A stretch of DNA of 64,000 nt. It comes from a virus. Shown piece after piece: positions 4,184-60,048 of the stretch. A program made the translations under genes and the position numbers. The notes under the pieces are model-generated. The model was given only the letters and a program-made list of their open reading frames with translations, did not search any database and was not told the DNA's origin. Within the stretch, counting starts at the first letter, position 1. Each line of letters opens with the position of its first letter. The stretch spans positions 64,001 to 128,000 of the IMG/VR virus record IMGVR_UViG_3300020162_002681; one strand, given 5' to 3'.

Positions 4184-4315
4184 ATGAAACACTTTGCAGA
4201 ATTTGAGAACATTTATCAAACTGGATTGAAAAATCTCCTGACAAACAACACAGAACCTGCTGTGAAGAAATACATCAGAAAGAAGAAAGAACAGGCAGAG
4301 ACAGAAAAAGAATAA
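4184..4315 (+). CDS. 43-aa micro-protein beginning MKHFAEF (not in the ORF track)
   Basis: ATG 4184 to TAA 4315, 6 nt after the FN3 gene stop: MKHFAEFENIYQTGLKNLLTNNTEPAVKKYIRKKKEQAETEKE. Confidence 0.65.
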   Translation: MKHFAEFENIYQTGLKNLLTNNTEPAVKKYIRKKKEQAETEKE

Positions 4316-4498: not shown

Positions 4499-6040
4499 CT
4501 ATTGTGCTGGCGGCGCTCCCTCTTCAGGAGGATATGCTTCGGCTCCACCTCCTTCTGGTGGGGTTGGGGGCATCTGCATCTGCTGTAACTGTGCCTGTAG
4601 CTGTACAACTTGTGTTTGGTCTTGTAGCTCCTTCTGTATTTGGGCTTTGAGGGCATCTTCAGCTTTTTTCTCTTTCTCAGTTTCGTCGAGAGAGGGCAGT
4701 CCAAGATTTTTGTAGATGAGGTTAAGAACTTGGACGTTATTGGTGTCAATGATACCACTTGCCATGAGCGAAGTGATGGTGCTGAGACGACCATTTACAG
4801 TAGCTTGGTCTTCCTCTACATCGAATACAAACTCGCCCCAATCTTCGCTGAACCAGCTTGAAGGGAAGTTATCGTGAAGCAAGCCACGAATCATCTTGTG
4901 AATAATTTCGTGCTTGAGAGTTGTTGTCAGTGCAAAAATGGTTGAGTCAAAGGTCATCTTGAAATTCTGACCAAAGCCGTTATTGCCTAAATTTGTCGTG
5001 CCAGAGCCACTGTTAACATCAAAGATGCCTGAAGGTATAGCGAAACTGGATTGAATGCCTCTGTCGATGTATTCTAGTGCCTTGAAATGATTGTCGCTAG
5101 TGTTTTGTATTTGAATGCGTTGCAGGTCTACATCACTATCGGTGACAATAAACCCACGTTTTTGTATATCTTTCAATTGGTAACTGAGCGCGATTTGCTT
5201 TGTCACCTGCATAGGCTTTTTAGTTTTTTCATCGATTTTTACTTTGCCCTGAGCATCCACTAAGGTTGTTGTACCATTGGCAGGGGTTTTTGCCCATAAC
5301 AGACCTTCGCTGTCATTTTTGATGCGGAGAGCTAGGTGTGTGAGTACCACGCGCTTTAATTTGTAATACGGCAAAGCTGAAACCCCGTCTCCCACACCCC
5401 ATACAGCCGTTTTATCGAATGTAGCTCCGCTATTATTTACGATGTGCAAGCATTTGGAATAAGGTATCTTTACTTGCTTTCCAGAACCATTATCATATAA
5501 AATCCACTCAATTTTCCCAGAACTTTTAGATGATTTACCAAAAGATATGATTTGGTCTGGATTTAAGACGTTTAAATTTGCAATTCGCCACTGCCCCCTG
5601 TATCCTCGCAACTTAGATGATTTGGTAAATTCTACTACAGCCACCCCATGTAAAATAACTGAACTAAAAATTTTAAATATTGTTTGTTTGAAGCTTTTAG
5701 ATAAAGTTTTTAAGTTACTATTAACAAAAGCCTCTATTTCTTTCTTGGGATGTGAATATTCTCCGAAACTGCTGGCGCACCTCAAAGCCTTAAAAGCTAA
5801 ACACTGACTGACTATGGGGTCTTTCGCAGCCATGATGGATAAGTCCTTAATGGCGGGACGCTCGACCTCCTGTGGGTGGTTTATCTCAGCAAAAGCTAAT
5901 CCTGTGAGCGCCGCGATTTCTGTGCTATACATCCCTTGGACGGAGGCATTGAGGGGCGTAGGAGTGCCAGCAAAAAGTAACTCGTTATCAAGTTCTGCAA
6001 GATTAAGTTCTAACTGGTTGACTTCTTGGAAAAGAGGCAT
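4499..6040 (-). CDS. Portal protein (Mu gp29/DUF935-like)
   Basis: 513 aa; DPIVSQCL, ILHGVAVVEF and WGVGDG motifs; acidic, Pro-rich C-terminal tail typical of portals. Confidence 0.8.
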   Translation of the reverse strand: MPLFQEVNQLELNLAELDNELLFAGTPTPLNASVQGMYSTEIAALTGLAFAEINHPQEVERPAIKDLSIMAAKDPIVSQCLAFKALRCASSFGEYSHPKKEIEAFVNSNLKTLSKSFKQTIFKIFSSVILHGVAVVEFTKSSKLRGYRGQWRIANLNVLNPDQIISFGKSSKSSGKIEWILYDNGSGKQVKIPYSKCLHIVNNSGATFDKTAVWGVGDGVSALPYYKLKRVVLTHLALRIKNDSEGLLWAKTPANGTTTLVDAQGKVKIDEKTKKPMQVTKQIALSYQLKDIQKRGFIVTDSDVDLQRIQIQNTSDNHFKALEYIDRGIQSSFAIPSGIFDVNSGSGTTNLGNNGFGQNFKMTFDSTIFALTTTLKHEIIHKMIRGLLHDNFPSSWFSEDWGEFVFDVEEDQATVNGRLSTITSLMASGIIDTNNVQVLNLIYKNLGLPSLDETEKEKKAEDALKAQIQKELQDQTQVVQLQAQLQQMQMPPTPPEGGGAEAYPPEEGAPPAQ

Positions 6041-12376: not shown

Positions 12377-12766
12377 CTAGAAATTTACAAAGTGCTGAAA
12401 ATTGCCACTGAAACCGCCGTATTGCCCTTGGAGAGCCGCCTGTTGACTACGCCAAGCACTCGCAGGAATTTTTTTACGTGCTACACCTGCTGCATCAATG
12501 AAGCTATTTTCACCTAATGGTCTTTGAGGGTTTCTAGGTGCTTGTTGCTTTGCCATGCCTCTACCCACGCTGGCGCTAGCAATTGCTTCCTGTCTGTTCA
12601 GGCTAGGAGGGGAGTTCTGCACCACTGCTGACCTCTGATTTCTCGTCAACGCTAGAGGTGAGGAATTAATAGGAGTCTCACCCCAAGTTGGAACTTCAGG
12701 TGCTTTTGGTTTGAAACTTTGACGAAGCTGATTTGCTTTTTGCCCGATAGTGGAGGTAGGTAGCAT
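12377..12766 (-). CDS. Disordered basic protein ending in QHFVNF (putative internal head cargo)
   Basis: 129 aa, P/Q/R/A-rich; the HFxNF motif is at the C-terminus. Confidence 0.65.
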   Translation of the reverse strand: MLPTSTIGQKANQLRQSFKPKAPEVPTWGETPINSSPLALTRNQRSAVVQNSPPSLNRQEAIASASVGRGMAKQQAPRNPQRPLGENSFIDAAGVARKKIPASAWRSQQAALQGQYGGFSGNFQHFVNF

Positions 12767-19514: not shown

Positions 19515-20078
19515 TTAGTAACGAATACGGGCTTTAGGCATTCTAACACCTGTAGATACCATGTCAACAGGTTCTTCCATCATTCCACCCATTCCTTTGT
19601 ATGAGTCAGTTCTAAATCCTAAGTATCCTGTTGGACTTGCAGCTTCATCGGTTGTTTTGCGAATATCTGTGAAGCCTTTAGTGTCTGGGGTTTTCACGTA
19701 ATCTCTTTTTAGTGGGTCAGGTGCATAGAGGTCTTTATATTCGTACCCTTTAGGCTTACGCATTAGTTGTGGTAATCCAGCCTCTTTTCTTAGTCTGGTT
19801 CTATTGCCGCCTCGGTCGTTATACCACTCATCCTTTAAAAGAGTATTTCCACCATCTCTAGTATCGAAACTATAAGGCTTTAATGACTCTCTAGCTACTC
19901 TAAGTGTATTTGCAGGTTTAGTCTGGCTTCCAAACGGTTTTAGTTTCTCATTTAGAGTGTCTTCTACTCCCTTACCGTACTTTTTTGTATATATTTCGTC
20001 AGCTTTACCTAATTGAGCATTTCTTTTCAGTTGTTTGTTTTGCTGCTTGATTACACCAAAATCTGCGAAGTGTTGCAT
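19515..20078 (-). CDS. Basic protein starting MQHFADF (putative internal head cargo)
   Basis: 187 aa, K/R-rich, N-terminal HFxxF motif. Confidence 0.7.
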   Translation of the reverse strand: MQHFADFGVIKQQNKQLKRNAQLGKADEIYTKKYGKGVEDTLNEKLKPFGSQTKPANTLRVARESLKPYSFDTRDGGNTLLKDEWYNDRGGNRTRLRKEAGLPQLMRKPKGYEYKDLYAPDPLKRDYVKTPDTKGFTDIRKTTDEAASPTGYLGFRTDSYKGMGGMMEEPVDMVSTGVRMPKARIRY

Positions 20079-35295: not shown

Positions 35296-36112
35296 CTATG
35301 ATAGCAGAGATTGGAGAGCTTCTTGCCTAGCGGTATAAGCAAGTTCTGGTGTATCAAACGTACCAATATAGATTTTTTGTTTGTTTACGACTAATCGAGC
35401 TTCATACTTGTCGTATTTACCTTTTTTATACACACCAGACGGTAGCTTTCGGGATTTTTTGGGGCTGGTCAGTTGAGCCTTATCTAATTCTTCTTTTACA
35501 GAGCTATCTTTGTCCCAGTAAAATTTTTCAGCTAAGATTCTAACATAACAAGCTTCTTTCTCTGTTTCGTAAGACCCCAGATAGATTGATTTTTTTATTT
35601 ACCTTAATACTTGTTTCCCACCTTGCACCTTCGGATTTCCTATAGGCACTATCTCCCCTCTTTCTTCTCGATTCTATCATAAGCGTCTTATTTTCTTCTG
35701 AATGAGTTTTTCCGTAAAAGGGATTATTCTTACCTAATGTTTGCTGTTTCTTTTTTATTTTTCTGTGAGGCTCATCTTCAGATATTTTACCAAAAGCTCT
35801 AGTAGACCTAGTTTGGTTGTAGCAAAGTTTCCAATCTGTAATTGAATCTAGGTAAGTTTGTTCAATATCTAATAAATCCTCATTGCTCTTATTTTCACAA
35901 TTTTCTAAAACTTCTATATTAAAAATAGAATCCCCATGCAGATTGAAAACTCTTTGTAAATGCTTATTATTGTGTGTCTGCTTCCTTAATTTGTAAAAAT
36001 GCTCCCTAATCCTAATTCTAATGTTTTGGCTACTGCCAATGTAGAAGAATTTAGAGTCTGTATTGGTTATTTTGTAAATACCTTTAATATTAGGTATATT
36101 GTTTAAATCCAT
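35296..36112 (-). pseudogene. GIY-YIG-NUMOD3-AP2x2 homing endonuclease split by a frameshift in an A7 run (35590-35596)
   Basis: GIYKITN...FYIGSS N-domain; removing one A restores KVNKKSIYLGSYETEKEA... and a second AP2 ...YIGTFDTPELAYTAR to TAG 35296. Confidence 0.85.
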
Positions 36113-38449: not shown

Positions 38450-39331
38450 TTATAGTCCGAAATCCAGACCCATAGCAATCAAGTCACCTTTGGCGGCTTC
38501 TTCAAGGCTAGATGAGAAATTAGCAGTTGCAACTTCTTCAGCACTAACACTGAAATCGGTGAACTGAGTAACATTAGCAATATTACGGAGCAAGCTATAA
38601 GCGAACTCCGACATATTAAGTTGTTCTTGCAAGTCACGCGCACCGTTAGTTTGAGCGATACCACTAAACTGAGCTACTCGTTGGCGAGGGTCAGAGAAGT
38701 TACCGATAAGAGCTTCCTTCATTGCTGGGGTAATAACACCATCAACAACGTCTTGGCTAATACGTGCGTTCAAGTCGCTCAACGCTTGGGAAAGTTGTGC
38801 TTCAAAGTTAGCTTGTGCAAAGTTAGCTTCAAGAGCTTCTTTTTCTGCGCGTAGCTTTTGAATTTCACTAACTACAGTCTTATTAAAGTTAGCTTGGATT
38901 GCGGGGTTATAAGCAGCCGCATAATCTGCTCCTTCTTGTGCCATATCTGGTTCTACGCCTCCTTCAGCGTCATCCGTATCATATTGAGCTTCTAGAGCTT
39001 GTTTATCCTGTTCTAAGACTCCATCAGCAACTTCGATAATTTGTTCAATATCTTCATCGTTAGCGTCAGGGAAAGCTCCAATCATTGCTTCGAGAATATT
39101 GACATCATCAACAATGTTTTCACCGCTAATGTAGCCAGTTACATCTTCTTCACTCAGTCCAGTAGATTGAACGAGAGCTTGAATACCAGCATCAATGTCG
39201 CCTTCATATTGGGCTTCAATTAAGTCTAGAAGTAATTCGCCAAAAGCATTGGTTGGATTGAGTTCGGTCATTTCCTGACCTGCCCCTTCCATACCAGCGT
39301 CCTGAGCGCCTAAATCTTGTTCTTCATCCAT
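38450..39331 (-). CDS. Capsid scaffolding protein with four ANF sites
   Basis: Very acidic coiled coil; DGVITPAM motif as in Mu-like protease/scaffold C-termini. Confidence 0.75.
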   Translation of the reverse strand: MDEEQDLGAQDAGMEGAGQEMTELNPTNAFGELLLDLIEAQYEGDIDAGIQALVQSTGLSEEDVTGYISGENIVDDVNILEAMIGAFPDANDEDIEQIIEVADGVLEQDKQALEAQYDTDDAEGGVEPDMAQEGADYAAAYNPAIQANFNKTVVSEIQKLRAEKEALEANFAQANFEAQLSQALSDLNARISQDVVDGVITPAMKEALIGNFSDPRQRVAQFSGIAQTNGARDLQEQLNMSEFAYSLLRNIANVTQFTDFSVSAEEVATANFSSSLEEAAKGDLIAMGLDFGL

Positions 39332-39362
39332 TTTTATTATTTTCGTTTTTTAGGATTAAAAC

Positions 39363-39398
39363 AATAATGCCACACTAATTTCTCAGCATGGCATTATT
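39363..39398 (-). terminator. Inverted repeat, probable terminator
   Basis: AATAATGCCA/TGGCATTATT 10-bp stem followed by GTTTT on the minus strand. Confidence 0.6.
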
Positions 39399-39421
39399 TA
39401 TGGTTTTTTCCCGTAAGTGGA

Positions 39422-41074
39422 TTATTCTATAGGAATGTTAGGAATTTTACCCCTTTCTTGGGGGTTTGGGTTGGTTTTTGCCATACCTTTATTTTTACTT
39501 CTCCAGTCTTGCAGTTGCTTTTGATTGAGTCCGTAGCCAGCCGCCGAACCAACTCCACGACCCACAGCTCCCCCAGCAGCACCTAGTCCAAGCACTTTAC
39601 CAGCACGCCCAACCAAACCTGTACTTCTGCGTTGCTCTTCTGTCTCATTAATCCCAGCTCCCTCAAGAACCCCCAAACCAGCACCTACAGCAGTACCTAC
39701 ATTAGCAGGGTTAATTTGTGGAGAGAGATTCATAAAACGTTTTGCAGTTCCAGCAGCAGCCTTTTGAGCGCCTTGAACCAGACCCGTAGGAATCATGCCA
39801 AATGATGCAGACTTACGAACTGTCTTATTGTAACGAGCTTCATCTTCCTTTTTTCTTAGCCCATTAGCGGCAAGCAATCCACCACCAGCAAGTGCAGTAC
39901 CACCAACTCCGATAGCAGCAAGTCGAGCAGCTTTATCAGTGTCAAGAACCTTGGCAGCACCTTGTAATGCATCGTAAGTACCAGCAGCCGCCTTGTTAGC
40001 TCCTCCATTGAGTCTAGAGCCAATAATAGGAATACCACCTAAAAATTTATCTGTGGTGTTGATTTTGCCAGCAGCCTTACGAACTGCTTTAGCTGCGGGT
40101 TGTGTGATATACTTACCTGCCGAGGTCAACGCACTGTTAATTTGTGCACCAATTCCAAAATTCGCTTCTTGTTGGTGTTTTAGGAAGTTTGCAGATTTGC
40201 GGATTTCTTTATTAAAGTACTTACCAGTTGGCTTGCCAGATTCAATCATCGAGTTGATGTCCTTAACTCCCATGCTTGCTGGGATTTTAGGTTCTCTCAA
40301 CTTCTTTTTCTGCATCTTACCTTTAAGTGTTGTTTCAAGGGTAACAACTCCAGTATTGTCTTGAGGGATATAGGTACTACCTTTTTGGATTAGTCTTTGA
40401 ATTGTAGCTGGGTCTTGGAAATTAGCCGCTTTGCGAATTGATTTGCTCATATCTATTGTTTGTCCATTAAGTCCTTGGTTAGTTGCTCCTGTTGGCTTGC
40501 GTCGAAACACATTACCAAAGAATTGCTTAGTTGTTTCAATGTCTTGTTGTGCTTTACCAGCAGCCCTGTCTAGAAGTGAAGGTTGACTACCACTAGACTG
40601 ACGTTGTAAATCTTCATTCATTCTAGCTTCACGTTGCTCTAGATTAGGATTAACAATCTTTTGAACTTCCTGCTTAACATTCTGAATTTCGTCACTTACA
40701 GCTCTTCCAGTATCTTTGACTACTTTAACTGCTTTACGGATGCCTCTAGGGTTAGCTGCTTCATGTTCAGCCACAACAGCTTCTCTACGTTGTAACTCTC
40801 TTTCTGGAGCTTTAGATAAATTGTAGCGATTAGCCGCATATCCAGCACCAGCCCCCAGTCCAGCACCTACAGTCGTGCTTGTCAGTACTTTACCTAAACG
40901 ATTGCCAACATTAGTAGCTTTCTTTTCTGCATCTGACTCCAGAACTCCAGAGCCTTGTAGCAATCCAACTCCAGCACCAACACCAGCACCAATTTTCACT
41001 GCGTTAGGGAGGGCAGAAAGGAGGGATGGTTTGGCAAACTCAGCTTTTTTTTGTAGTAGTGATTTTTTATTCAT
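39422..41074 (-). CDS. Modular internal-head/ejection polyprotein (two Gly-zipper hairpins, KTSC-like unit, hydrophobic helix) punctuated by AxF sites
   Basis: Likely start MNKKSLLQKKAEF at 41074 (TAATG overlap with the upstream stop); AEF, ANF x3 and ASF at module edges. Confidence 0.65.
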   Translation of the reverse strand: MNKKSLLQKKAEFAKPSLLSALPNAVKIGAGVGAGVGLLQGSGVLESDAEKKATNVGNRLGKVLTSTTVGAGLGAGAGYAANRYNLSKAPERELQRREAVVAEHEAANPRGIRKAVKVVKDTGRAVSDEIQNVKQEVQKIVNPNLEQREARMNEDLQRQSSGSQPSLLDRAAGKAQQDIETTKQFFGNVFRRKPTGATNQGLNGQTIDMSKSIRKAANFQDPATIQRLIQKGSTYIPQDNTGVVTLETTLKGKMQKKKLREPKIPASMGVKDINSMIESGKPTGKYFNKEIRKSANFLKHQQEANFGIGAQINSALTSAGKYITQPAAKAVRKAAGKINTTDKFLGGIPIIGSRLNGGANKAAAGTYDALQGAAKVLDTDKAARLAAIGVGGTALAGGGLLAANGLRKKEDEARYNKTVRKSASFGMIPTGLVQGAQKAAAGTAKRFMNLSPQINPANVGTAVGAGLGVLEGAGINETEEQRRSTGLVGRAGKVLGLGAAGGAVGRGVGSAAGYGLNQKQLQDWRSKNKGMAKTNPNPQERGKIPNIPIE

Positions 41075-41523
41075 TAGTTGTTCCAGTGATGTGCTACAGT
41101 ATTTCCGAGTAGACCTGTTACAGCACCTAATCCAGTATAGCTTGCTTGTTGACCTAAGCCTTTTAGACCAGCCCAACGTTGCAGTTTAGCGGATTCATAG
41201 TCAGCTTTAGATTGTGCTTTTTCGATTGCCGAAGCACGTTGCTTAGGGTCTTCAAGTTGTTGTGCAGCCTCCAGTTGAGCAGTTAAGGCTTGGTTGTGAC
41301 GCTCAGTGGGGTCAGCACTACGTCTCAGAGCTTTCGCTTTGGTTTGAGCAGCAGCAGCCCGACCTACTTCAGAGCCAGCAAGACCTCCTAAAGTAGTACC
41401 AAGATAATCACCAACACCTTCACTTACTAAGGCTGAAGGGTCGAAGAAGTTTGCAACCGCTTTATCGTATGCACGTTTGAACTGCGAGTAAGTTGAATTA
41501 TGTTTGCGAAAGAATTTAGCCAT
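41074..41523 (-). CDS. Gly-zipper/coiled-coil putative ejection protein with ANFFDP site
   Basis: KAVANFFDP then GVGDYLGTTLGGLAG, coiled coil, GLGAVTGLLG. Confidence 0.6.
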   Translation of the reverse strand: MAKFFRKHNSTYSQFKRAYDKAVANFFDPSALVSEGVGDYLGTTLGGLAGSEVGRAAAAQTKAKALRRSADPTERHNQALTAQLEAAQQLEDPKQRASAIEKAQSKADYESAKLQRWAGLKGLGQQASYTGLGAVTGLLGNTVAHHWNN

Positions 41524-41531
41524 ATATTTTC

Positions 41532-42860
41532 CTATTGTAATGCCTCCCAGTTAGCACGTTTTAATCCAGTCCTAAGTACTGACCTAACATCTCCATTGAG
41601 AACTGAATCAATAATTCTATTCTTGGAGTCATCATCGATAAACCTATTCTGAGCTTTGTTTAGCAGTCCTCGGCGCAGTTGCTTATCCTTAATACCATCA
41701 AGAGCAGCTAACTTCTGAGCTTCAAACACTTCACTCTGTTCATCTGCGGCTTTCTTTTTGTTGTAAATACCATAAGCTGCACTACCGATAGCTAGGCTAG
41801 GGGTAATGAAAGGGTCGAAGAAGTTGGCAGTCTTACTTGTACCTCTAGAGTATTTAGCAGTACCTTTAGGTTTAGCTTGTTGTTGTGCAGGAGTTAGTCT
41901 ATCAAGGGGATTGTCTGTAACACTAGCTAACAAAGGATTACCAGTAATATTAGCAGCCTCACGAATCAGATTATCTGCGTGGTACTGAGGACTGTCGAAA
42001 TAATTAGCCGCAAAGTCTTGGGCATTCTTATCTTTGAGGCTATTTACCTTGTAAGCATCCAACGCTCTTTGCTTATTGAGCTTAGATAACAAACCGTACC
42101 CAGCTACTAAGGTTCCCCCAACAGCAGCTAAAGGCAGAGCTTTTTCTTTTTTAACGAAGAAAGGATTGCGAACACCAATTTTAGGGAATGCAAAATTCGC
42201 TGGAGCCACTAAAGGCGCAGCACTGAAGAAATTGTAAGGTACTTTAGGCTGAGTAGATTGTTGTTGTGCTTGTCTTTGTTCCAATAGCAGATTCCTCTTT
42301 GCAATAATTTCAGCCACCTTATCTCGATGACCTTGTGCCTGTGCTTGCTTTTCTTGTTCGACTTCTTTGTTTTTGTTATTTTGGTATATGGCTGTACCTG
42401 CGGCGATAGGGGCAAGGGTCAGTCCTCCTAAAGTTCCGTAGATGGCATTCTCACCAAAGCCTCTATCAATCAACTTATTGGCGACATGATTGACGACAGG
42501 AGTGACCAGAGGAATTCCACCACCACCCGAAAATTTGTCCCGCAGTCTTTGAGTTTCTGCATCGGCAAGCGCAGCTCTCTTAGCAGCTACTCTTTGACCT
42601 TGAGCACTACCTATCTCTGCTTGTGTGGGAGGGACTACAGGAGGCGCAGGAGGATTTAATTCTTGCAACCTCTTGTTATATACATCTTTACCCTCGGCTT
42701 GCAATCTTTTTTGTGCGAGAAACTTCTCAGCCTCAGTCATTGCAGAAGGTACTGGGTTTGCAGTAGCTTGCAACCTTCTCTTCTGCCTCATCCCAGCATT
42801 ATAAATGAGAGCAGACTTCCCGCCTCTAGGATTTTGTCTCACAGCAAATTCGCTTAGCAT
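41532..42860 (-). CDS. Modular putative internal-head protein with three hydrophobic units
   Basis: MLSEF, APANF and KTANFFDP each open a unit containing a G/A-rich hydrophobic helix followed by a basic stretch. Confidence 0.6.
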   Translation of the reverse strand: MLSEFAVRQNPRGGKSALIYNAGMRQKRRLQATANPVPSAMTEAEKFLAQKRLQAEGKDVYNKRLQELNPPAPPVVPPTQAEIGSAQGQRVAAKRAALADAETQRLRDKFSGGGGIPLVTPVVNHVANKLIDRGFGENAIYGTLGGLTLAPIAAGTAIYQNNKNKEVEQEKQAQAQGHRDKVAEIIAKRNLLLEQRQAQQQSTQPKVPYNFFSAAPLVAPANFAFPKIGVRNPFFVKKEKALPLAAVGGTLVAGYGLLSKLNKQRALDAYKVNSLKDKNAQDFAANYFDSPQYHADNLIREAANITGNPLLASVTDNPLDRLTPAQQQAKPKGTAKYSRGTSKTANFFDPFITPSLAIGSAAYGIYNKKKAADEQSEVFEAQKLAALDGIKDKQLRRGLLNKAQNRFIDDDSKNRIIDSVLNGDVRSVLRTGLKRANWEALQ

Positions 42861-43876
42861 TTAGCTGCACTTCCTCTTACATACTTTTTGACAGTACCTT
42901 TCGATAGGTTAAACAGAGCCAACTTATTAGTCCCCCGCTTGTATGTGGTTTGTTGTTGTAACTGAGGGATAGTCATCCCACTCTCAGTCCCTCCTTGCAA
43001 CTGTGCTTGGGTCTGTGCCGCTTGGTCTTGAGGAGTCATTACCCCAGCCTGTGCTTGCTGATTCATTTGTTGCATCAACTGAGTCAAACCGAGTAGTTCG
43101 ATAATCTTGACGCTGAATCCATTCAATTGTGAGTAAATCAACTGCAATAGAACTTCGGGGCTGTCAATGTTAATCGCATCATTGTCGTAAGCGTTCTTGA
43201 GTAGGAGCCAAAGCTTTTGGCAGACATCATTGTACTCTTCTTGCAAGTCATCGATTTGTTGGTCACTAGCATCAAGCTCGTCCCAAGTTACAGCATTCGA
43301 GGAGTCTGGAATACCTGTAAAGTTAGCAGTCATTGCTTTGCTTACTTTCTTGTGGAAAAGCCCCATGTTAGGGATTGCTGGAATAGGTACTAGAGACAGC
43401 TCCATAATACGATGTTCATTTGGGTCAAGGTTTAATCCCATGCTGACGCTCTTAACACCACTACGCAATGCTTCGATTCCTTTGGCTGCTGCAACTTTAA
43501 CACCAGACAAGAACATTCCAAGCTTACCAACTAGATGCTGAGAATTTTGGTTAGGTAAATCTTCTTCTGTGATAACTTTGGTGTAAGCGCGTCCACTAAT
43601 GCTTCCGATAGTATTTGGAATATCTTTCTTGTGGTCTGCACAAACGGGAACGACAGTACCGCTATCAATAGCTCGATTAGTATGCTCAACGATTGTATTT
43701 AAACGTTCGGCACTAAAATCGTGTTCAATATCTGTAGAGTCGGTGAACTTACCCTCAGTGGCAACGAGTGCGGTATATTCACTTTTAATTGGAGTGCCAG
43801 ATACCAACACCTGCCCCAACTCAAAGTTGGCTCTTGATGCTGGGGCTTTAAAATAGGCGATGTTGGTTTTCTTCAT
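42854..43876 (-). CDS. Prohead protease (Mu gpI-like)
   Basis: ATEGKF..., VPVCADH, KSVSMG and ELSLVPIPAIPNM motifs; ANF on both sides of the catalytic domain. Confidence 0.8.
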   Translation of the reverse strand: MKKTNIAYFKAPASRANFELGQVLVSGTPIKSEYTALVATEGKFTDSTDIEHDFSAERLNTIVEHTNRAIDSGTVVPVCADHKKDIPNTIGSISGRAYTKVITEEDLPNQNSQHLVGKLGMFLSGVKVAAAKGIEALRSGVKSVSMGLNLDPNEHRIMELSLVPIPAIPNMGLFHKKVSKAMTANFTGIPDSSNAVTWDELDASDQQIDDLQEEYNDVCQKLWLLLKNAYDNDAINIDSPEVLLQLIYSQLNGFSVKIIELLGLTQLMQQMNQQAQAGVMTPQDQAAQTQAQLQGGTESGMTIPQLQQQTTYKRGTNKLALFNLSKGTVKKYVRGSAAKC

Positions 43877-45143: not shown

Positions 45144-45386
45144 ATGAACGACAAATTACTATTTAACCAGCAAGTCGGAGAGAAGCTGCGTAGCTTACGC
45201 AAGGCTAGGAATAAGTCTCAGGCTAGTGTTGCGGCAGATTTTGCTTTCGGGCAAGATGTTGTTAGTGAAATTGAGCGTGGGGTTAAAACAATTAGTGCAT
45301 TTGAGCTGGTAGCTTTCAGTGCATATTACGAAAAACCGATTACCTACTTCTTTATGAACTCGGCGCTACCCACTAAAAATTCTTAA
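45144..45386 (+). CDS. XRE/Cro-C1 helix-turn-helix regulator
   Basis: VGEKLRSLRKARNKSQASVA...VSEIERG...YFF. Confidence 0.9.
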   Translation: MNDKLLFNQQVGEKLRSLRKARNKSQASVAADFAFGQDVVSEIERGVKTISAFELVAFSAYYEKPITYFFMNSALPTKNS

Positions 45387-45957
45387 AATGTTTGAACGAA
45401 CTAGACATCGGTGCTATTTGAGGGGAACCTTTTCCACGTAATTTAGACAATACTCCGCCAGCACTTTTTATAGCTGCTAAACCTATCTTTGGCGCATCAT
45501 GAAAGTACATCTTAGGTCTTGTCACTATTTGCTTTTTAGCCGTCTCTAGTGCAGCTTTACCAGATTCCTGCATAACCTCTCTTGGCGTTAATTTACGTCC
45601 AAGCTGTTTACTTTTATCCGCAACTCCTCGAACATTTCGATAGGTTGCCGCCATACCATCAGCAATCGGATTTCCCCAGCCTTCACTATCACGCAACACA
45701 TGACCACCAGTTTCAAGTGCTGCCTTAGCAACTCGTTGTGGCAGCTTATCGCCAGCATTGGCTTGGTAAGTGTCTTTAGCTGTCTTTGCCCATTTAGGGA
45801 AGTTAGGGGCATTCATGGCTACGGGAAGTGCACTCATGTCACCAAAACTAGGATGATAACTATATACCGCATTTCTAGCTGCATCAAAAGCTGAAGGAAT
45901 ATCAACGTGTTGCAGAGCTTGAAGCCCCTCAAACATAAAGTCAGCTTGTCTGGTCAT
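45373..45957 (-). CDS. Basic protein with N-terminal QADF and C-terminal KHFKNF (putative head cargo)
   Basis: MTRQADF..., ends SSFKHFKNF*. Confidence 0.65.
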   Translation of the reverse strand: MTRQADFMFEGLQALQHVDIPSAFDAARNAVYSYHPSFGDMSALPVAMNAPNFPKWAKTAKDTYQANAGDKLPQRVAKAALETGGHVLRDSEGWGNPIADGMAATYRNVRGVADKSKQLGRKLTPREVMQESGKAALETAKKQIVTRPKMYFHDAPKIGLAAIKSAGGVLSKLRGKGSPQIAPMSSSFKHFKNF

Positions 45958-46065: not shown

Positions 46066-47706
46066 CTAAAAGTGACTGACGATTTGGACACTTCGAGCCA
46101 CGTTATTAACTATATTTTTTTCTGCCCCAACAAAGTTGAGTGCCTCTATTCCTGATTCTACTATTCGGGGTAAGTTAGCTGCATCAGGTGACGGTAATCT
46201 AGGTGTTGTGAAAGTCGAGTATATGGCTTTGGCTGTTGCATTTCCTAGTGATTTATTAGAGGCAAGTAGTGCAAGTCCAGCAACGAATGCAGTAGCTGCA
46301 ATAGCAATCTTAATTGGTGTACCTAAACCGCCTTGAGGTGGTCGATTAGGAGGTTGTTTCTTAGGGTCGAAATCTTCTTCATCAACGTCTTCCACTAGAG
46401 TCCAGAAGCACTGGCACTGTACATGAAAAGGTATAGAAGGTTTGCTGTGATTACGCCACACAGTTCCCCCGCCTTTTTTATAATTAATAACGTCACCTGC
46501 ACTTCTTTGGTTTTCAAGTATCTCAAATAGGAAATACTCAAGTCCATCTTGAAGTTCACAATCTTCACATGGTACAGGGTCAGTTCTTTTACTGCCGCTT
46601 GCTAATCTTTTGTAACGACTAATCAGCGCATACTCTCTATCAACATTCCATCTGAACCTCTTGTATCTATCAGCTTTTCCTCCAAATGCAGCTATCTTCC
46701 CAAAATTGTATGCGATGTTCAATTCAGTCTTTACAATGACATCTGGCGATTGTTGCTTAAATGCACCTTGCAAGCCAGTTTGGTCTTTGTTAATAATATT
46801 GCGAATACGCACTTTTAATAGGTTGAGGTCATATTCATATTTGTTTCGTTGAGACTTGATGTTGGTGATGTACTCGCGGTTGTCTGCGAGAAATAGTGCG
46901 ACAGCTTTGCGGATTTGCTTATTGCTTTCAGTCGAGTAAGAGGCTTGTAATACTCGACGGCGCTTACCTAAATAGTTGCTCGATATGAAGTTCTGTTTCT
47001 CGTCACTACTACCATACAAAAAGTTCATCATGGCAGCTTTACCTGCATTGGTGCTATCACTTATCTTGTTGAGCATATAAACGTTGCGGGATACTTCATC
47101 GGCTATTTTGACTCGCTCTTGCACGTTGGCTAAGTCATTAATATTAGTTTGCTCGGCTCGTTGCTTCAGCAGGTTGTTGACGGCATTTCTGGTCAAGCTA
47201 TACCTTGCTCGATTTTGCATATTTTGCCCGTAATCATCATTGGCTGCAAACTCAGCCGCTAACTCTTTAGTGTCTTCTGCAATAACTACACTGTCAAAAT
47301 ACTTGCGAATATCGTCATCACCATACTCATAAAGATAGTCATACATCTGATGCCTCAGCGCCAACTTAATCATCGACTCAAAATTAGTGGTCAATACCTT
47401 GTTAAACTCAACTTGCACCTTTAGAAAGTACTTGTCGGTAACATCGCTTACATTCTTTTCTGCAAACTTGTCAAACAATTGGTCTGGCACTTCATAAATA
47501 CTTGCATTCGATTTAGCAATCCACTTAGCTAGTTCATCGACAAACGTGGTCTTAGCAAACTCACTATTAATTGCCATACGAACACCCAAAATAGATTCAG
47601 CCAAGGCTTTGAAGTACTCTTGCGTCTTAAACTCTTTGAAACTATTGGACTGTCTACGCATGGTGCTAAGATTATTAAGAATATGTATATCTATATAGTA
47701 TGACAC
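46066..47706 (-). CDS. Head morphogenesis protein (Mu gpF/SPP1 gp7-like) with hydrophobic C-terminal extension
   Basis: IVKTELNIAYN, CEDC and PFHVQCQC signatures; true start may be the ATG at 47661. Confidence 0.8.
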   Translation of the reverse strand: MSYYIDIHILNNLSTMRRQSNSFKEFKTQEYFKALAESILGVRMAINSEFAKTTFVDELAKWIAKSNASIYEVPDQLFDKFAEKNVSDVTDKYFLKVQVEFNKVLTTNFESMIKLALRHQMYDYLYEYGDDDIRKYFDSVVIAEDTKELAAEFAANDDYGQNMQNRARYSLTRNAVNNLLKQRAEQTNINDLANVQERVKIADEVSRNVYMLNKISDSTNAGKAAMMNFLYGSSDEKQNFISSNYLGKRRRVLQASYSTESNKQIRKAVALFLADNREYITNIKSQRNKYEYDLNLLKVRIRNIINKDQTGLQGAFKQQSPDVIVKTELNIAYNFGKIAAFGGKADRYKRFRWNVDREYALISRYKRLASGSKRTDPVPCEDCELQDGLEYFLFEILENQRSAGDVINYKKGGGTVWRNHSKPSIPFHVQCQCFWTLVEDVDEEDFDPKKQPPNRPPQGGLGTPIKIAIAATAFVAGLALLASNKSLGNATAKAIYSTFTTPRLPSPDAANLPRIVESGIEALNFVGAEKNIVNNVARSVQIVSHF

Positions 47707-53663: not shown

Positions 53664-55508
53664 CTATGAAAATATCTGGTTCCCAATACTTCGGTGAAAG
53701 TAGTTGAATGATTGAGAGTGAACCACATCTTCAAGACCACCTAAGCGCCCAAACCTCATAGCTGGTGGTTGGTAAACTGCATCAGTATAGCGCCCCTTAC
53801 CTACTGTCAGACGTACAGAGTCAATACGCCCAAGCATACTTATTTCTGCTGATGCAATAGCCAAGTTAGTAGCAGGAGAATCAGTAGCAAGCCCAGACTT
53901 CTCCGTAAGCAACTGACCATCACAATGTACCTTGATGCTCGTCCCAACTCGCGTGACAGAAAAGAATATGTAGCGACTGTTTTGGTATCTAAAAAGGCGA
54001 TTGGCGTTATCAAATGTGTAGGTGTTAGCACCGATGGTTACAATAAGCGTTAGATTCTGAGTGCTGGTGGTTAGTTGACCTGTGTAGCTAATGCTGAAGT
54101 TGGTGGAGCTGAAATAGTCATGGGTAAGTGTTGTTACCGATTCATAAAAAGCTGTGTCTTGATATTGTAAATAGAACTCGTAAGTAAAGTCTCCAGTTAC
54201 ATTGATGGTGGAAGCGGGAGCGATGGTGATGGTGTCAATTACATTATCAAACTCGGCAATTTGATTAGGAATACCAAAGGTGATGATGTCTGTATCTTGT
54301 TGGGTCACTCCTAGTATTGTTACTGGAACTGACAGACTACTTTTATCCTCGTACCAAAGTTTATCTCGCCATTCCTGAGCCTCAAAGTCGAGCAAGAGTT
54401 TGACATATTTGAAATAATCATCATAAAGTTTAGGAGCTGCTAGGAGTTGAGTCTGGTTGTCGTCGATGTTATAGCGCCAAGCAGGTATGCCCCCCTGACC
54501 TAGAGCAGCTATGTTAAGTGCAGTGGCGGTGACGTATGTAGTTATTACTCCAGCTACGTTTTGGACAGATATTGTGATGATATCTGTTTTCCCAGCGCCA
54601 GACAACCGAATAGCTTTACCGTCTTCATATTTGACGTTAGTAAGCCCACCAATCAAGATTTGTCCAGTGTCTTGTCTTATCTCAATGAGCATCACGGCTG
54701 CTTGATTGGTACTGGGAGATAACTGCGGTAACAAAATGCACTGAGCTTGAGTAGCTACAGGTAATCCAGTGACTATCCAATAATCTGAAGTAGCATAAGG
54801 CAGATTAACAGTAGCGGCGTTACCCACCACTGTAGAAATATTAGTAAAAGAATTATAAAAATAATTACCATTGGCGTTGAGGTTCCCACCTAGTTGTGGT
54901 GATGTGTCACGGACAATGTGCAGGTCTTGATTGCTCCAAACAGTCCCGCTAGCATCAAGCGAGAGTATCTGGTGTCTATGTGGGTCGCCTTCGGTTCCTG
55001 CTGTCGGTACTAGTTCTACGTCATCGAGTTGGTTGACAAGATTAAGTCGAGTTCGGGGTCGCCATCGCGCAGTAGGTAAGTCCCAATAGAGTGTCTGATT
55101 GTTAGTAAGACCTGCTAGATTTACGTCTGTAAGCTGAGATAGAGCGTAAGCTGGGCTTGCATTAACATACGCTTCTTTGAGGGGGTCATAGCGCAGGTAC
55201 TGACCATCTACAGGTGACACTATCTCAAGGTCACTCAGTCGGTTGAGGTTGCCAATCTGCGAAGCTGCTGTAAACTCGTTACCATCCTTAACAAAGAAAT
55301 CGCCATCACGCGCATTGGTTATGTTTACATCTTGAAGCTCAGTAAACTTCTGTACGCCCTTGCCAATCTCGAATACTTTGCCAGTGAAGTCCTTAGTGTA
55401 TAGGACTGCTTGCTCATCCTTAAGTGCTAAGACAAGTTCACCAACAGCAATTTCATAGGGTGCTGGAAGTGAATCGTTGTTAAGGGTGTGCTTAAGGATT
55501 GTTGACAC
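53664..55508 (-). CDS. Tail fibre-like protein with LxDV repeats and a C-terminal LamG domain
   Basis: L.DV repeats, DTSPQLGGNLNANG, GDFTYEF...IDSVRLTVGKGRY. Confidence 0.7.
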   Translation of the reverse strand: MSTILKHTLNNDSLPAPYEIAVGELVLALKDEQAVLYTKDFTGKVFEIGKGVQKFTELQDVNITNARDGDFFVKDGNEFTAASQIGNLNRLSDLEIVSPVDGQYLRYDPLKEAYVNASPAYALSQLTDVNLAGLTNNQTLYWDLPTARWRPRTRLNLVNQLDDVELVPTAGTEGDPHRHQILSLDASGTVWSNQDLHIVRDTSPQLGGNLNANGNYFYNSFTNISTVVGNAATVNLPYATSDYWIVTGLPVATQAQCILLPQLSPSTNQAAVMLIEIRQDTGQILIGGLTNVKYEDGKAIRLSGAGKTDIITISVQNVAGVITTYVTATALNIAALGQGGIPAWRYNIDDNQTQLLAAPKLYDDYFKYVKLLLDFEAQEWRDKLWYEDKSSLSVPVTILGVTQQDTDIITFGIPNQIAEFDNVIDTITIAPASTINVTGDFTYEFYLQYQDTAFYESVTTLTHDYFSSTNFSISYTGQLTTSTQNLTLIVTIGANTYTFDNANRLFRYQNSRYIFFSVTRVGTSIKVHCDGQLLTEKSGLATDSPATNLAIASAEISMLGRIDSVRLTVGKGRYTDAVYQPPAMRFGRLGGLEDVVHSQSFNYFHRSIGNQIFS

Positions 55509-58359: not shown

Positions 58360-59077
58360 TCCAATCGAGCAAAAGTTAAAATCACTACGCAACTTGAATA
58401 GTGGTCAGCCCGAATTACAAAAGCTAACTATTCACAAACTCAGCAAGACAAGCTGGGTCAACTGGAATCATATTAGGCAAGCGTATATTCTTGGCAAGCG
58501 TATTGAAGAGTTCGACGAGGAGACGGGGCATACACGAATTTGGTCTGAGAGCTACAACTTAGAGGAACTGGCACGAGAGTTTGGTGTTGGTGTCAGTCAG
58601 CTAACGAAGAAATCTGCAATTGAAGGTTGGGGTGGATTGCGCGATAGCTATTTGGCGCGAGTACAGGAGGAGGCGCTTGGTACTGAGCTTGGCTATTTCA
58701 CTAATGAGGAGAGCGAGACTGAGGCAAACAGCTTGGCTATCATTCGTAAGGGTATGAAGCTGATTAACTTGGGACTTGAGCAAGAGTACGGAGACTTACT
58801 TGAGGCTGTGGACGCTGATGGTGATGTGGACTTGCGTGAATATAGTAAGGTCAACTTGAAGGCTTTAGCTGAGGGAATCAAGGGGTTGAAAGCACTGCAT
58901 GAACTACATGGCAAGATAATGGAAAATGCCCCTAAAACTAATCAGGAGCTGCTAGAACAATTGAATCGCAGTAAGACGGTGGAGAGACTAAAGAATCCTA
59001 AAGAACGTGAGAAACTGCAAAAGGAGCTACAAAAGAAATTGCAACTCCTTAGTCAGATTGAAGAGGATGAGGACTAA
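58352..59077 (+). CDS. terS: Terminase small subunit-like protein
   Basis: NWNHIRQAYILG...LEELAREFGV...KKSAIEGW N-terminal HTH plus helical oligomerisation region; near terL. Confidence 0.65.
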   Translation: MSSPIEQKLKSLRNLNSGQPELQKLTIHKLSKTSWVNWNHIRQAYILGKRIEEFDEETGHTRIWSESYNLEELAREFGVGVSQLTKKSAIEGWGGLRDSYLARVQEEALGTELGYFTNEESETEANSLAIIRKGMKLINLGLEQEYGDLLEAVDADGDVDLREYSKVNLKALAEGIKGLKALHELHGKIMENAPKTNQELLEQLNRSKTVERLKNPKEREKLQKELQKKLQLLSQIEEDED

Positions 59078-60048
59078 GCTAAGTTGTCCATGTCTTGATA
59101 TGCTTTACGTCTCTTGTACATGGTGTTGCTAACCCTTGCGGCGTTCTCACCAGCAAGACCTAAACTTCCGCCGACAACTCCACCAGCAGCAGTGTTACCA
59201 AGAACTTTGCCAAGCCGACCTAATCCTGTAGTGTTAGCTTTTTCTTCTTCTGTCTCACCAATGCCAGCTCCTCTAGCCAGCCCAGCAGCAGCCCCAAGCC
59301 CTGCGCCAATCTGTACACCTCTAGTTGCACCAAATGCTTGAGCCGTATCCTTAAGTGCGCCTCCAGCAGCTTTAGCGTTGTTTAAGTAAGGCTGAGCTTT
59401 GTTTAGCATTGAAGGTAATGGGTTTGTAAAACCGAAGTTAGCGAAGTGTTGCATGTTTTTGTGTTGTGTGAAATTGATTCTACTATTGTAGCCTGTCATA
59501 AATGGCTTGCCTAATCTCTTAGCCGCATATAGGTTCTTTACTTCAGCTTCGTCATACTTATCTTTAATATTCTCAATTGCTGCATTATCGATAAGCCTAG
59601 CTTCGCGACGCTTTGGGTTGGGGTGTACTATATTTCCTTCGTGTATATCGACATGACCAAGATTTTGCTCACGTAGACGATTTTGGATACGACCAACTTG
59701 GCTCCCCAGTTTATACTGCTCCTTTGGTGCTATACCTTTTAATTTGTTAGGTAGAGGTTGACCAGCGTAATCTTGCGTGTAGGAGGTCATATTGCCACGT
59801 TCACGGTAGTTTTGCACTGGAGGCACTAGTCCTGTCGTTGTAGCTGCTTTACCTGCATTTGTATATTCTTTTCTACTGGCTTTTATGGCTGCTGCTCTGA
59901 CTTGAGGTGACTCAGGGTAGTAAGTACCGTCAGGGAGAATGTTGTCGATGCGTACCTTGTTTGTGGCAGGGAAATGTAGTACACGCTTATCTGGTGTGAG
60001 AAGAAGTGCTTTGGCGTTACGGATACGAGCGAAGGATGAGATGTTCAT
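59074..60048 (-). CDS. Protein-kinase-like domain fused via MQHFANF to a Gly-zipper hairpin module
   Basis: KEY, HVDIHEGNIV and RLIDNA kinase-fold motifs; internal MQHFANF at ATG 59454; C-terminal module homologous to those in 39422..41074. Confidence 0.7.
   Translation of the reverse strand: MNISSFARIRNAKALLLTPDKRVLHFPATNKVRIDNILPDGTYYPESPQVRAAAIKASRKEYTNAGKAATTTGLVPPVQNYRERGNMTSYTQDYAGQPLPNKLKGIAPKEQYKLGSQVGRIQNRLREQNLGHVDIHEGNIVHPNPKRREARLIDNAAIENIKDKYDEAEVKNLYAAKRLGKPFMTGYNSRINFTQHKNMQHFANFGFTNPLPSMLNKAQPYLNNAKAAGGALKDTAQAFGATRGVQIGAGLGAAAGLARGAGIGETEEEKANTTGLGRLGKVLGNTAAGGVVGGSLGLAGENAARVSNTMYKRRKAYQDMDNLA

Follow-up and report, generated by a model that had tools for sequence, protein, structure and literature searches.

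A recurring A-x-Phe motif, a predicted prohead protease site, in the head proteins of a cyanobacterial siphovirus

Introduction

Phage T4 packs basic internal proteins (IPI–III and Alt) into its head, encodes them in dispersed genes and gives them short conserved N-terminal leaders of about 10–19 amino acids (aa) that end in a site, (L/I)-x-E, of the prohead protease gp21; its acidic scaffold is degraded. The residue before the cut (P1) is Glu for T4 gp21 and phiKZ gp175, and Ala for herpesvirus assemblin. The prohead proteases SPN3US gp245, whose P1 is Glu, and phiKZ gp175 process both themselves and internal head proteins, cutting after A-x-E (PMC10052503). In Staphylococcus, the host cysteine protease Prp cuts F|A in ribosomal protein L27 and in the capsid and scaffold proteins of phage 80alpha (PMC5744158). 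Here we analyse a 64,000-nucleotide stretch (the window) comprising bases 64001–128000 of a phage genome that measures 146,232 bp and carries direct terminal repeats (IMGVR_UViG_3300020162_002681), in which the tripeptide Ala-any residue-Phe (A-x-F) recurs through a prohead protease, an acidic scaffolding protein and three basic proteins encoded between them.

We put at roughly 0.62 the probability that A-x-F is the recognition and cleavage motif of the phage's own prohead serine protease, acting on head proteins. In the head region, DNA identity to PA-SR01 and Pam2, two siphoviruses of Pseudanabaena, is about 80%; the protease shares 91–92% protein identity with its counterparts there. All window genes given below lie on the minus strand, where the order is protease, three unannotated genes that we call cargo genes (c442, c149 and c550; 39422–42860), scaffold, a 303-aa virion protein and a lambda-E-type major capsid protein (MCP; PHROG 29), the scaffold gene lying just upstream of the last two. 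A sequence search of the PDB with the MCP gave no match.

The locus shares its logic with each of these systems and departs from each. As with SPN3US and phiKZ, the substrates would be the protease itself and internal head proteins, the motif has a P3-x-P1 layout in which P3 is Ala, several sites can occur in one substrate, and fragments predicted from sequence to be released would be kept in the head. P1, however, is Glu there and Phe here; their sites are verified by mass spectrometry whereas ours are read from sequence; and the setting is a jumbo myovirus there but a 146-kb siphovirus here, with cargo made of basic glycine-zipper modules lacking recognisable enzymes. The likeness to T4 extends to short conserved leaders ending in a protease site, dispersed genes, basic head-packed proteins, an acidic scaffold and the protease fold, but the leaders here have 4–13 residues ending in A-x-F, and many modules are strung into polyproteins that are shuffled between relatives. 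Phe-ended short N-terminal leaders on several non-homologous structural proteins recall 80alpha, where the enzyme is a host protease tied to L27; here sites are also internal and multiplied. Mu gpI/gpZ (PF10123) likewise joins a protease domain to a helical scaffold-like domain in one polypeptide, yet Mu gpI has a single A-x-F (AVF, residues 130–132) inside the catalytic domain and none in linkers, and in Mu no cargo genes intervene between I and T. An earlier reading of the window from its letters alone (the sequence-only reading) had already compared the locus with T4 internal proteins and with phiKZ gp175, and the comparison is apt for the A-x-E motif of phiKZ and SPN3US too. Its label of a new system overstated the case: this is a variant of protease-processed internal head proteins, set apart by Phe at P1, shuffled glycine-zipper cargo and a long-tailed cyanophage setting. 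The literature searched held no report of an A-x-F motif, a Phe-specific prohead protease or a Pam2 structure.

Results

The motif is concentrated in five neighbouring genes of the head module. The 1,774 aa of their products contain 12 ANF (four in the scaffold, three in c550, one in c149 and two each in c442 and the protease), exactly the per-gene counts first reported, against 0.43 predicted by the amino-acid composition of these proteins (Poisson, 5e-14). A ranking of all their tripeptides put ANF first, with a P of about 1e-4 for the runner-up; the motif was therefore not cherry-picked. The remainder of the genome holds 7 ANF in 43,401 tripeptides (Fisher, 5e-13), and the five largest open reading frames (ORFs; 1631, 1923, 896, 899 and 1049 aa) hold none, as the sequence-only reading had noticed. 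Ala stands two residues before 33% of Phe in the head module versus 6.5% elsewhere in the genome. Although Asn is the commonest middle residue (11 of 16 A-x-F in this phage), comparison with orthologues indicates that the true motif is A-x-F and that ANF is the form favoured by this clade.

Conservation falls on Ala and Phe and spares the residue between them. In alignments of 8–11 distinct orthologues, the motif Ala and Phe are 88–100% conserved at most sites and 78% at poorly aligned ones, whereas flanking residues are 47–96% conserved and the middle residue varies freely among N, E, S, D, Q, V and R. The motif codons differ synonymously between sites (GCT/GCC/GCA/GCG, AAC/AAT, TTT/TTC), so selection acts on the protein, and a signal at the DNA level, which we also considered, is ruled out by the same variation. 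By these comparisons the A-x-F motif is real and under protein-level selection.

The enrichment extends to distant relatives. We studied flanking genes in three of them (L024–L026), whose proteases are 46–50% identical to that of the window. Their layout runs from an acidic protease through 4–6 basic Gly-rich proteins to a scaffold of isoelectric point (pI) 4.1, and Ala precedes Phe by two residues in 20–31% of cases inside the head module versus 6% outside. Enrichment in the genome and its relatives, which had been put forward as a check, was thus found in both. Among 78 homologues of c550, Ala is at −2 for 449 of 1,047 Phe (43%), each protein has 3–7 A-x-F, and the sites extend to a consensus, [FY]-N-K-x-I-R-K-S-A-[NESD]-F. 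About 68 of the 78 begin with a leader of 4–13 residues ending in A-x-F.

The protease has a prohead protease fold and carries the motif at its domain boundaries. The 340-aa protein (42854..43876) matches the head maturation protease family PHROG 976 (E 1.7e-4). An AlphaFold2 model built with 25 homologues has a confident core at residues 30–175 and suggests a catalytic domain over about that span, a helical scaffold-like domain at 203–275 and a low-confidence basic tail. The three A-x-F sites fall exactly in the low-confidence stretches 1–29, 176–202 and 290–340: ANF 16–18 (nt 43823–43831) before the catalytic domain, ANF 184–186 (nt 43319–43327) after it, as the sequence-only reading had described, and ALF 320–322 (nt 42911–42919) near the C-terminus. 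Judging from the model, the linkers that bear them are probably disordered. Across the family, A-x-F or L-x-F recurs at the same three places, the last within a conserved C-terminal element, Y-x-R-x(3-5)-[AL]-x-F, that is followed by a basic tail. The C-terminal site of one clade reads L-I-N-F.

Structural comparison places the predicted fold with assemblin, T4 gp21 and the HK97 prohead protease (clan SH). The model aligns with the varicella-zoster virus (VZV) protease, an assemblin, over 109 residues (Z 9.0, root-mean-square deviation (rmsd) 2.8 Å) and, through model residues 31–177, with T4 gp21 (5jbl) over 112 (Z 8.8, rmsd 2.7 Å). Foldseek against the PDB returned herpesvirus proteases for all top 30 matches (E about 0.01), and capsid maturation and HK97-type prohead proteases headed the 113 BFVD matches with E<=1e-3. 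H82, S145 and E159 are invariant across 25 homologues, down to 25% identity; His82 and Ser145 are the predicted catalytic residues. The family comprises 168 clusters at 50% identity, and the phage collection searched holds only two cultured members. The more specific assignment to a Mu gpI-type protease stands in part: the prohead protease fold is borne out by VZV protease and T4 gp21, and membership of PF10123 (Mu-like_Pro) was not reproduced, with no hmmscan match for the protease at E<=0.01, nothing at E<=10 in a whole-genome search with the family and an hhalign probability of 0.6% (E 0.098) against Mu gpI. That membership rests on the published HHpred match of PA-SR01 ORF24, 91% identical to the window protease, to PF10123 (E 4.5e-18; PMC10286775).

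Two further features of the protease family stood out. A [GA]-L-F tripeptide (F174 in the window protease) is invariant in all family members and closes the catalytic domain; it may form a structural strand or be one more point of self-cleavage. In four distant homologues (P0093, P0096, P0103 and P0133), a glycine-zipper segment and basic tail are fused to the C-terminus of the protease, and the link between zipper and protease is therefore older than the separate cargo genes.

The cargo proteins are basic strings of glycine-zipper modules, each preceded by A-x-F. The sequence-only reading had located sites at the modules of the three inserted genes, and this holds for all three. The 442-aa c442 (41532..42860; pI 9.9) begins with the leader MLSEF, carries ANF at 221–223 (nt 42192–42200) and 345–347 (nt 41820–41828), and consists of three modules, each with a Gly/Ala-rich hydrophobic segment. 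In the 149-aa c149 (41074..41523; pI 9.7), ANF 24–26 (nt 41446–41454) is followed by a Gly-rich module of 123 aa. The c550 polyprotein (39422..41074; 550 aa, pI 10.3) has five sites: AEF 11–13 (nt 41036–41044), ANF 217–219 (nt 40418–40426), ANF 295–297 (nt 40184–40192), ANF 304–306 (nt 40157–40165) and ASF 423–425 (nt 39800–39808). Between the cargo sites, every stretch has a moderately hydrophobic segment that is rich in Gly and Ala and shows GxxxG spacing; the Kyte-Doolittle mean over 19 residues rises to 1.6, the classical threshold, in just one of them. The GxxxG pattern was seen directly in the sequence, the glycine-zipper Pfam profiles Rick_17kDa_Anti and Gly-zipper_YMGG giving only sub-threshold matches on the cargo (E 1.8 and 4.4).

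One module type recurs within and beyond the head genes. The first and last large modules of c550 are paralogous double glycine-zipper hairpins of about 70 aa, and a third copy lies in an unlinked gene (59074–60048). Each copy is downstream of A-x-F, in the forms AEF, ASF and MQHFANF. Searches of Pfam, PHROGs and the ESM Atlas found no family for the cargo proteins or their single modules, and AlphaFold2 gave no usable fold for c550 (32 homologues; predicted local distance difference test (pLDDT) score 41). The enzymatic units that had been expected in the cargo did not appear: none of Pfam, PHROGs, the Atlas and AlphaFold2 revealed an enzyme domain.

The window, Pam2 and PA-SR01 combine the cargo modules in different arrangements. 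Internal sites of the window correspond in PA-SR01 to the starts of separate gene products, MRKSANF, MKHFANF and MSLKAEF. By the classical argument, modules fused in one phage and split in another are interchangeable, and the fused forms would therefore be cut. PA-SR01 also carries a DEAD/DEAH helicase gene on the opposite strand (L001 5958-7754) between its scaffold and cargo genes, which the window and Pam2 lack.

The scaffold is the acidic counterpart of the cargo. This 293-aa protein (38450..39331; pI 4.05) has ANF at nt 38885–38893, 38819–38827, 38804–38812 and 38516–38524, as well as AQF and SEF, all within its C-terminal half. It carries 4–6 sites, and their Ala and Phe are 100% conserved in 11 orthologues. 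Its net charge is −47, compared with +24 for c442, +6 for c149 and +41 for c550.

Published virion data from Pam2 fit a separation of cargo from scaffold. Mass spectrometry detected Pam2 gp15 (the c442 counterpart), gp17 (c550), gp19 and the MCP in virions, while gp14 (protease), gp16 (the c149 counterpart) and gp18 (scaffold) are not marked as detected (PMC9382816, Table S2). Two of three cargo orthologues are thus virion proteins, in keeping with the earlier proposal that the cargo is packaged. The pattern fits acidic scaffold fragments leaving and basic cargo staying with the DNA, and the charges fit the same split, with cargo of pI about 10 retained and scaffold of pI 4.05 expelled.

An extended form of the motif marks basic proteins outside the head module. 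The genome has five copies of HF-x-[NDE]-F, all of them preceded by Q or K; residue frequencies give a rough expectation of about 0.1 copies. Four copies are in the window and one is in a gene outside it. The sequence-only reading had placed this form in unlinked genes at five window positions, of which 12377, 19515, 45373 and 59074 were recovered; no copy was found near 4184. A 194-aa basic protein (45373..45957; pI 10) starts with the leader MTRQADF and finishes with KHFKNF, and relatives keep both ends as an A-[DE]-F leader and a C-terminal KHFK[ND]F. A 324-aa basic protein (p324; 59074..60048) has an internal MQHFANF (nt 59434–59454) just before the third double glycine-zipper hairpin (hidden Markov model match 2.4e-26). 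A 187-aa basic protein (19515..20078) starts MQHFADF and is a paralogue of the Pam2 virion proteins gp41 and gp44, and a 129-aa basic protein (12377..12766) ends QHFVNF, where its Pam2 orthologue gp46, detected in virions, ends QHFANF. In Pam2 the extended form starts gp37, gp39 and gp42 and ends gp46, with close variants in gp41 (MQHFTHF) and gp44 (VEHFANF); these carriers are basic proteins, most of them detected in virions (PMC9382816, Table S2). Kinase-like and JAMM-like motifs noticed in p324 and Pam2 gp37 were dropped for want of Pfam support.

The extended form belongs with the head system in part and may have a second role. It precedes a glycine-zipper hairpin in two window genes and is therefore tied to the same system. 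Its C-terminal copies cannot be cut after Phe, so it probably also works as a binding or loading tag, like the T4 capsid-targeting sequence. Inside the tail-gene block we also observed a family of small basic virion proteins, of which Pam2 gp37, gp39, gp41, gp42 and gp44 share the N-terminal heptapeptide MQHFxxF and gp46 ends QHFANF (Pam2 L033 12933-18326 and 23277-23672; window 19515-20078 and 12377-12766). They may be cargo of the head despite the position of their genes, or else tail proteins that share a docking peptide. The MCP does start MAYIENF, as had been noted, but it was rejected as a site: relatives read IEAF, IESW and IETW, and P3 is Glu in all of them where the motif needs Ala.

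Discussion

We infer that A-x-F is cut, after the Phe and by this protease, and that the motif also helps to load cargo. Recognition would require Ala at P3 and Phe at P1, with any residue at P2. The protease would enter the prohead through its C-terminal scaffold-like domain and there free its own catalytic domain. It would also break up the acidic scaffold, whose pieces would leave the shell, and either remove leaders of 4–13 residues from the basic glycine-zipper proteins or separate their modules, which would remain in the head with the DNA. Our leading guesses for the released modules are DNA counter-ions or membrane-inserting ejection proteins.

Several observations weigh against this mechanism, and some of them favour a tag that is never cut. 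A cleavage product has so far not been observed, and the Pam2 mass spectrometry gives presence or absence only. The c550 model is of low confidence (pLDDT 41), which leaves the domain edges of the cargo tentative, and the three IRKSANF linkers of c550 could be paralogous copies and not independent sites. Some carriers of the extended form lie among tail genes, to whose products a prohead-confined protease would have no access unless they are head proteins. Finally, [QK]HF-x-N-F sits at the extreme C-terminus of two proteins (QHFVNF and KHFKNF, as does QHFANF in Pam2 gp46), where a cut after Phe is meaningless. The last point speaks for the main alternative, in which A-x-F is a docking or packaging tag only, binding to the core of the scaffold, the inside of the shell or the groove of the protease and so loading cargo into the prohead uncut. 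The alternating conservation of Ala and Phe would suit any extended-strand binding, not just a protease groove, and in 80alpha the scaffold leader is needed for assembly although its cleavage is not (PMC5744158). Yet copies of the motif lie on both sides of the protease's catalytic domain and several more are in the scaffold, like the self-processing and scaffold-degradation sites of T4 and SPN3US; modules fused in one phage are separate genes in another, and so end up as separate units; and both scaffold and protease are absent from Pam2 virions. We regard an exclusively docking role as unlikely, though a serious competitor to cleavage by the prohead protease.

Other enzymes, or none, account less well for the motif. 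Prp offers a precedent for a host protease that cuts after Phe, with Phe-ended short leaders on unrelated phage structural proteins, tail proteins included (PMC5744158); QHF|A within MQHFANF resembles a Prp site, and the carriers among tail genes would be explained too. However, Peptidase_Prp (PF04327) is matched neither in the phage nor in any of 81 sampled cyanobacterial-class genomes, a sample with positive controls that excluded the actual host strain. Even in distant relatives the motif goes with the phage protease family and is present at the termini of the protease itself, which makes a host enzyme quite improbable. Tetravirus capsids mature by Asn-dependent autoproteolysis at N|F, freeing lytic peptides, and the prevalence of Asn in the middle position here invites the same explanation; but Asn is freely replaced at orthologous sites where Ala and Phe are fixed, and we consider such a reaction very improbable indeed. 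Least credible is that the repeats have no function and stem from composition, duplicated linkers or a DNA-level signal. The three IRKSA[NS]F boxes of c550 do look paralogous, but the excess of ANF over expectation, the mutually unrelated site flanks in scaffold, protease and c442, the synonymous codon differences and the retention of the motif down to 46% protease identity all stand against it.

A bolder version of the cleavage reading joins loading and cutting in one signal. The protease groove would itself serve as the cargo receptor, C-terminal ...NF ends would act as uncleavable product mimics, and released zipper hairpins would be ejected ahead of the DNA into cyanobacterial membranes. 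We hold this doubtful. Were it true, a long-tailed phage would possess a peptide-built ejection channel or membrane-depolarising cargo made from shuffled polyprotein modules.

If cleavage at A-x-F is confirmed, an assemblin/HK97-fold prohead protease would have an aromatic P1 residue. Head cargo would become readable from sequence in a family of cyanophages of about 140 kb that is otherwise almost unannotated, and internal head proteins would be seen to evolve as shuffled, protease-delimited modules. The phages of bloom-forming Pseudanabaena would also gain a testable set of packaged, possibly injected, proteins.

Additional features of the window

The window holds two portal candidates. The product of 4499-6040 gave the sole Pfam portal signal (PF04860, E 1.5e-6, below the cut-off) and is encoded about 38 kb from the protease and MCP genes; a 614-aa protein (53664-55508) adjoins the large terminase, and its Pam2 counterpart, gp3, is a virion protein. 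Upstream of the protease, a 546-aa protein (46066-47706) without a Pfam match ends in SHF, has a hydrophobic segment close to that end and contains a C-x2-C ... H-x-Q-C-x-C pattern that recalls minor head proteins of the Mu F/SPP1 gp7 type. Directly downstream of the MCP gene, a 190-aa ORF (35540-36112) resembles, by its KGIYKITN...FYIGSS signature, a GIY-YIG-type homing endonuclease.

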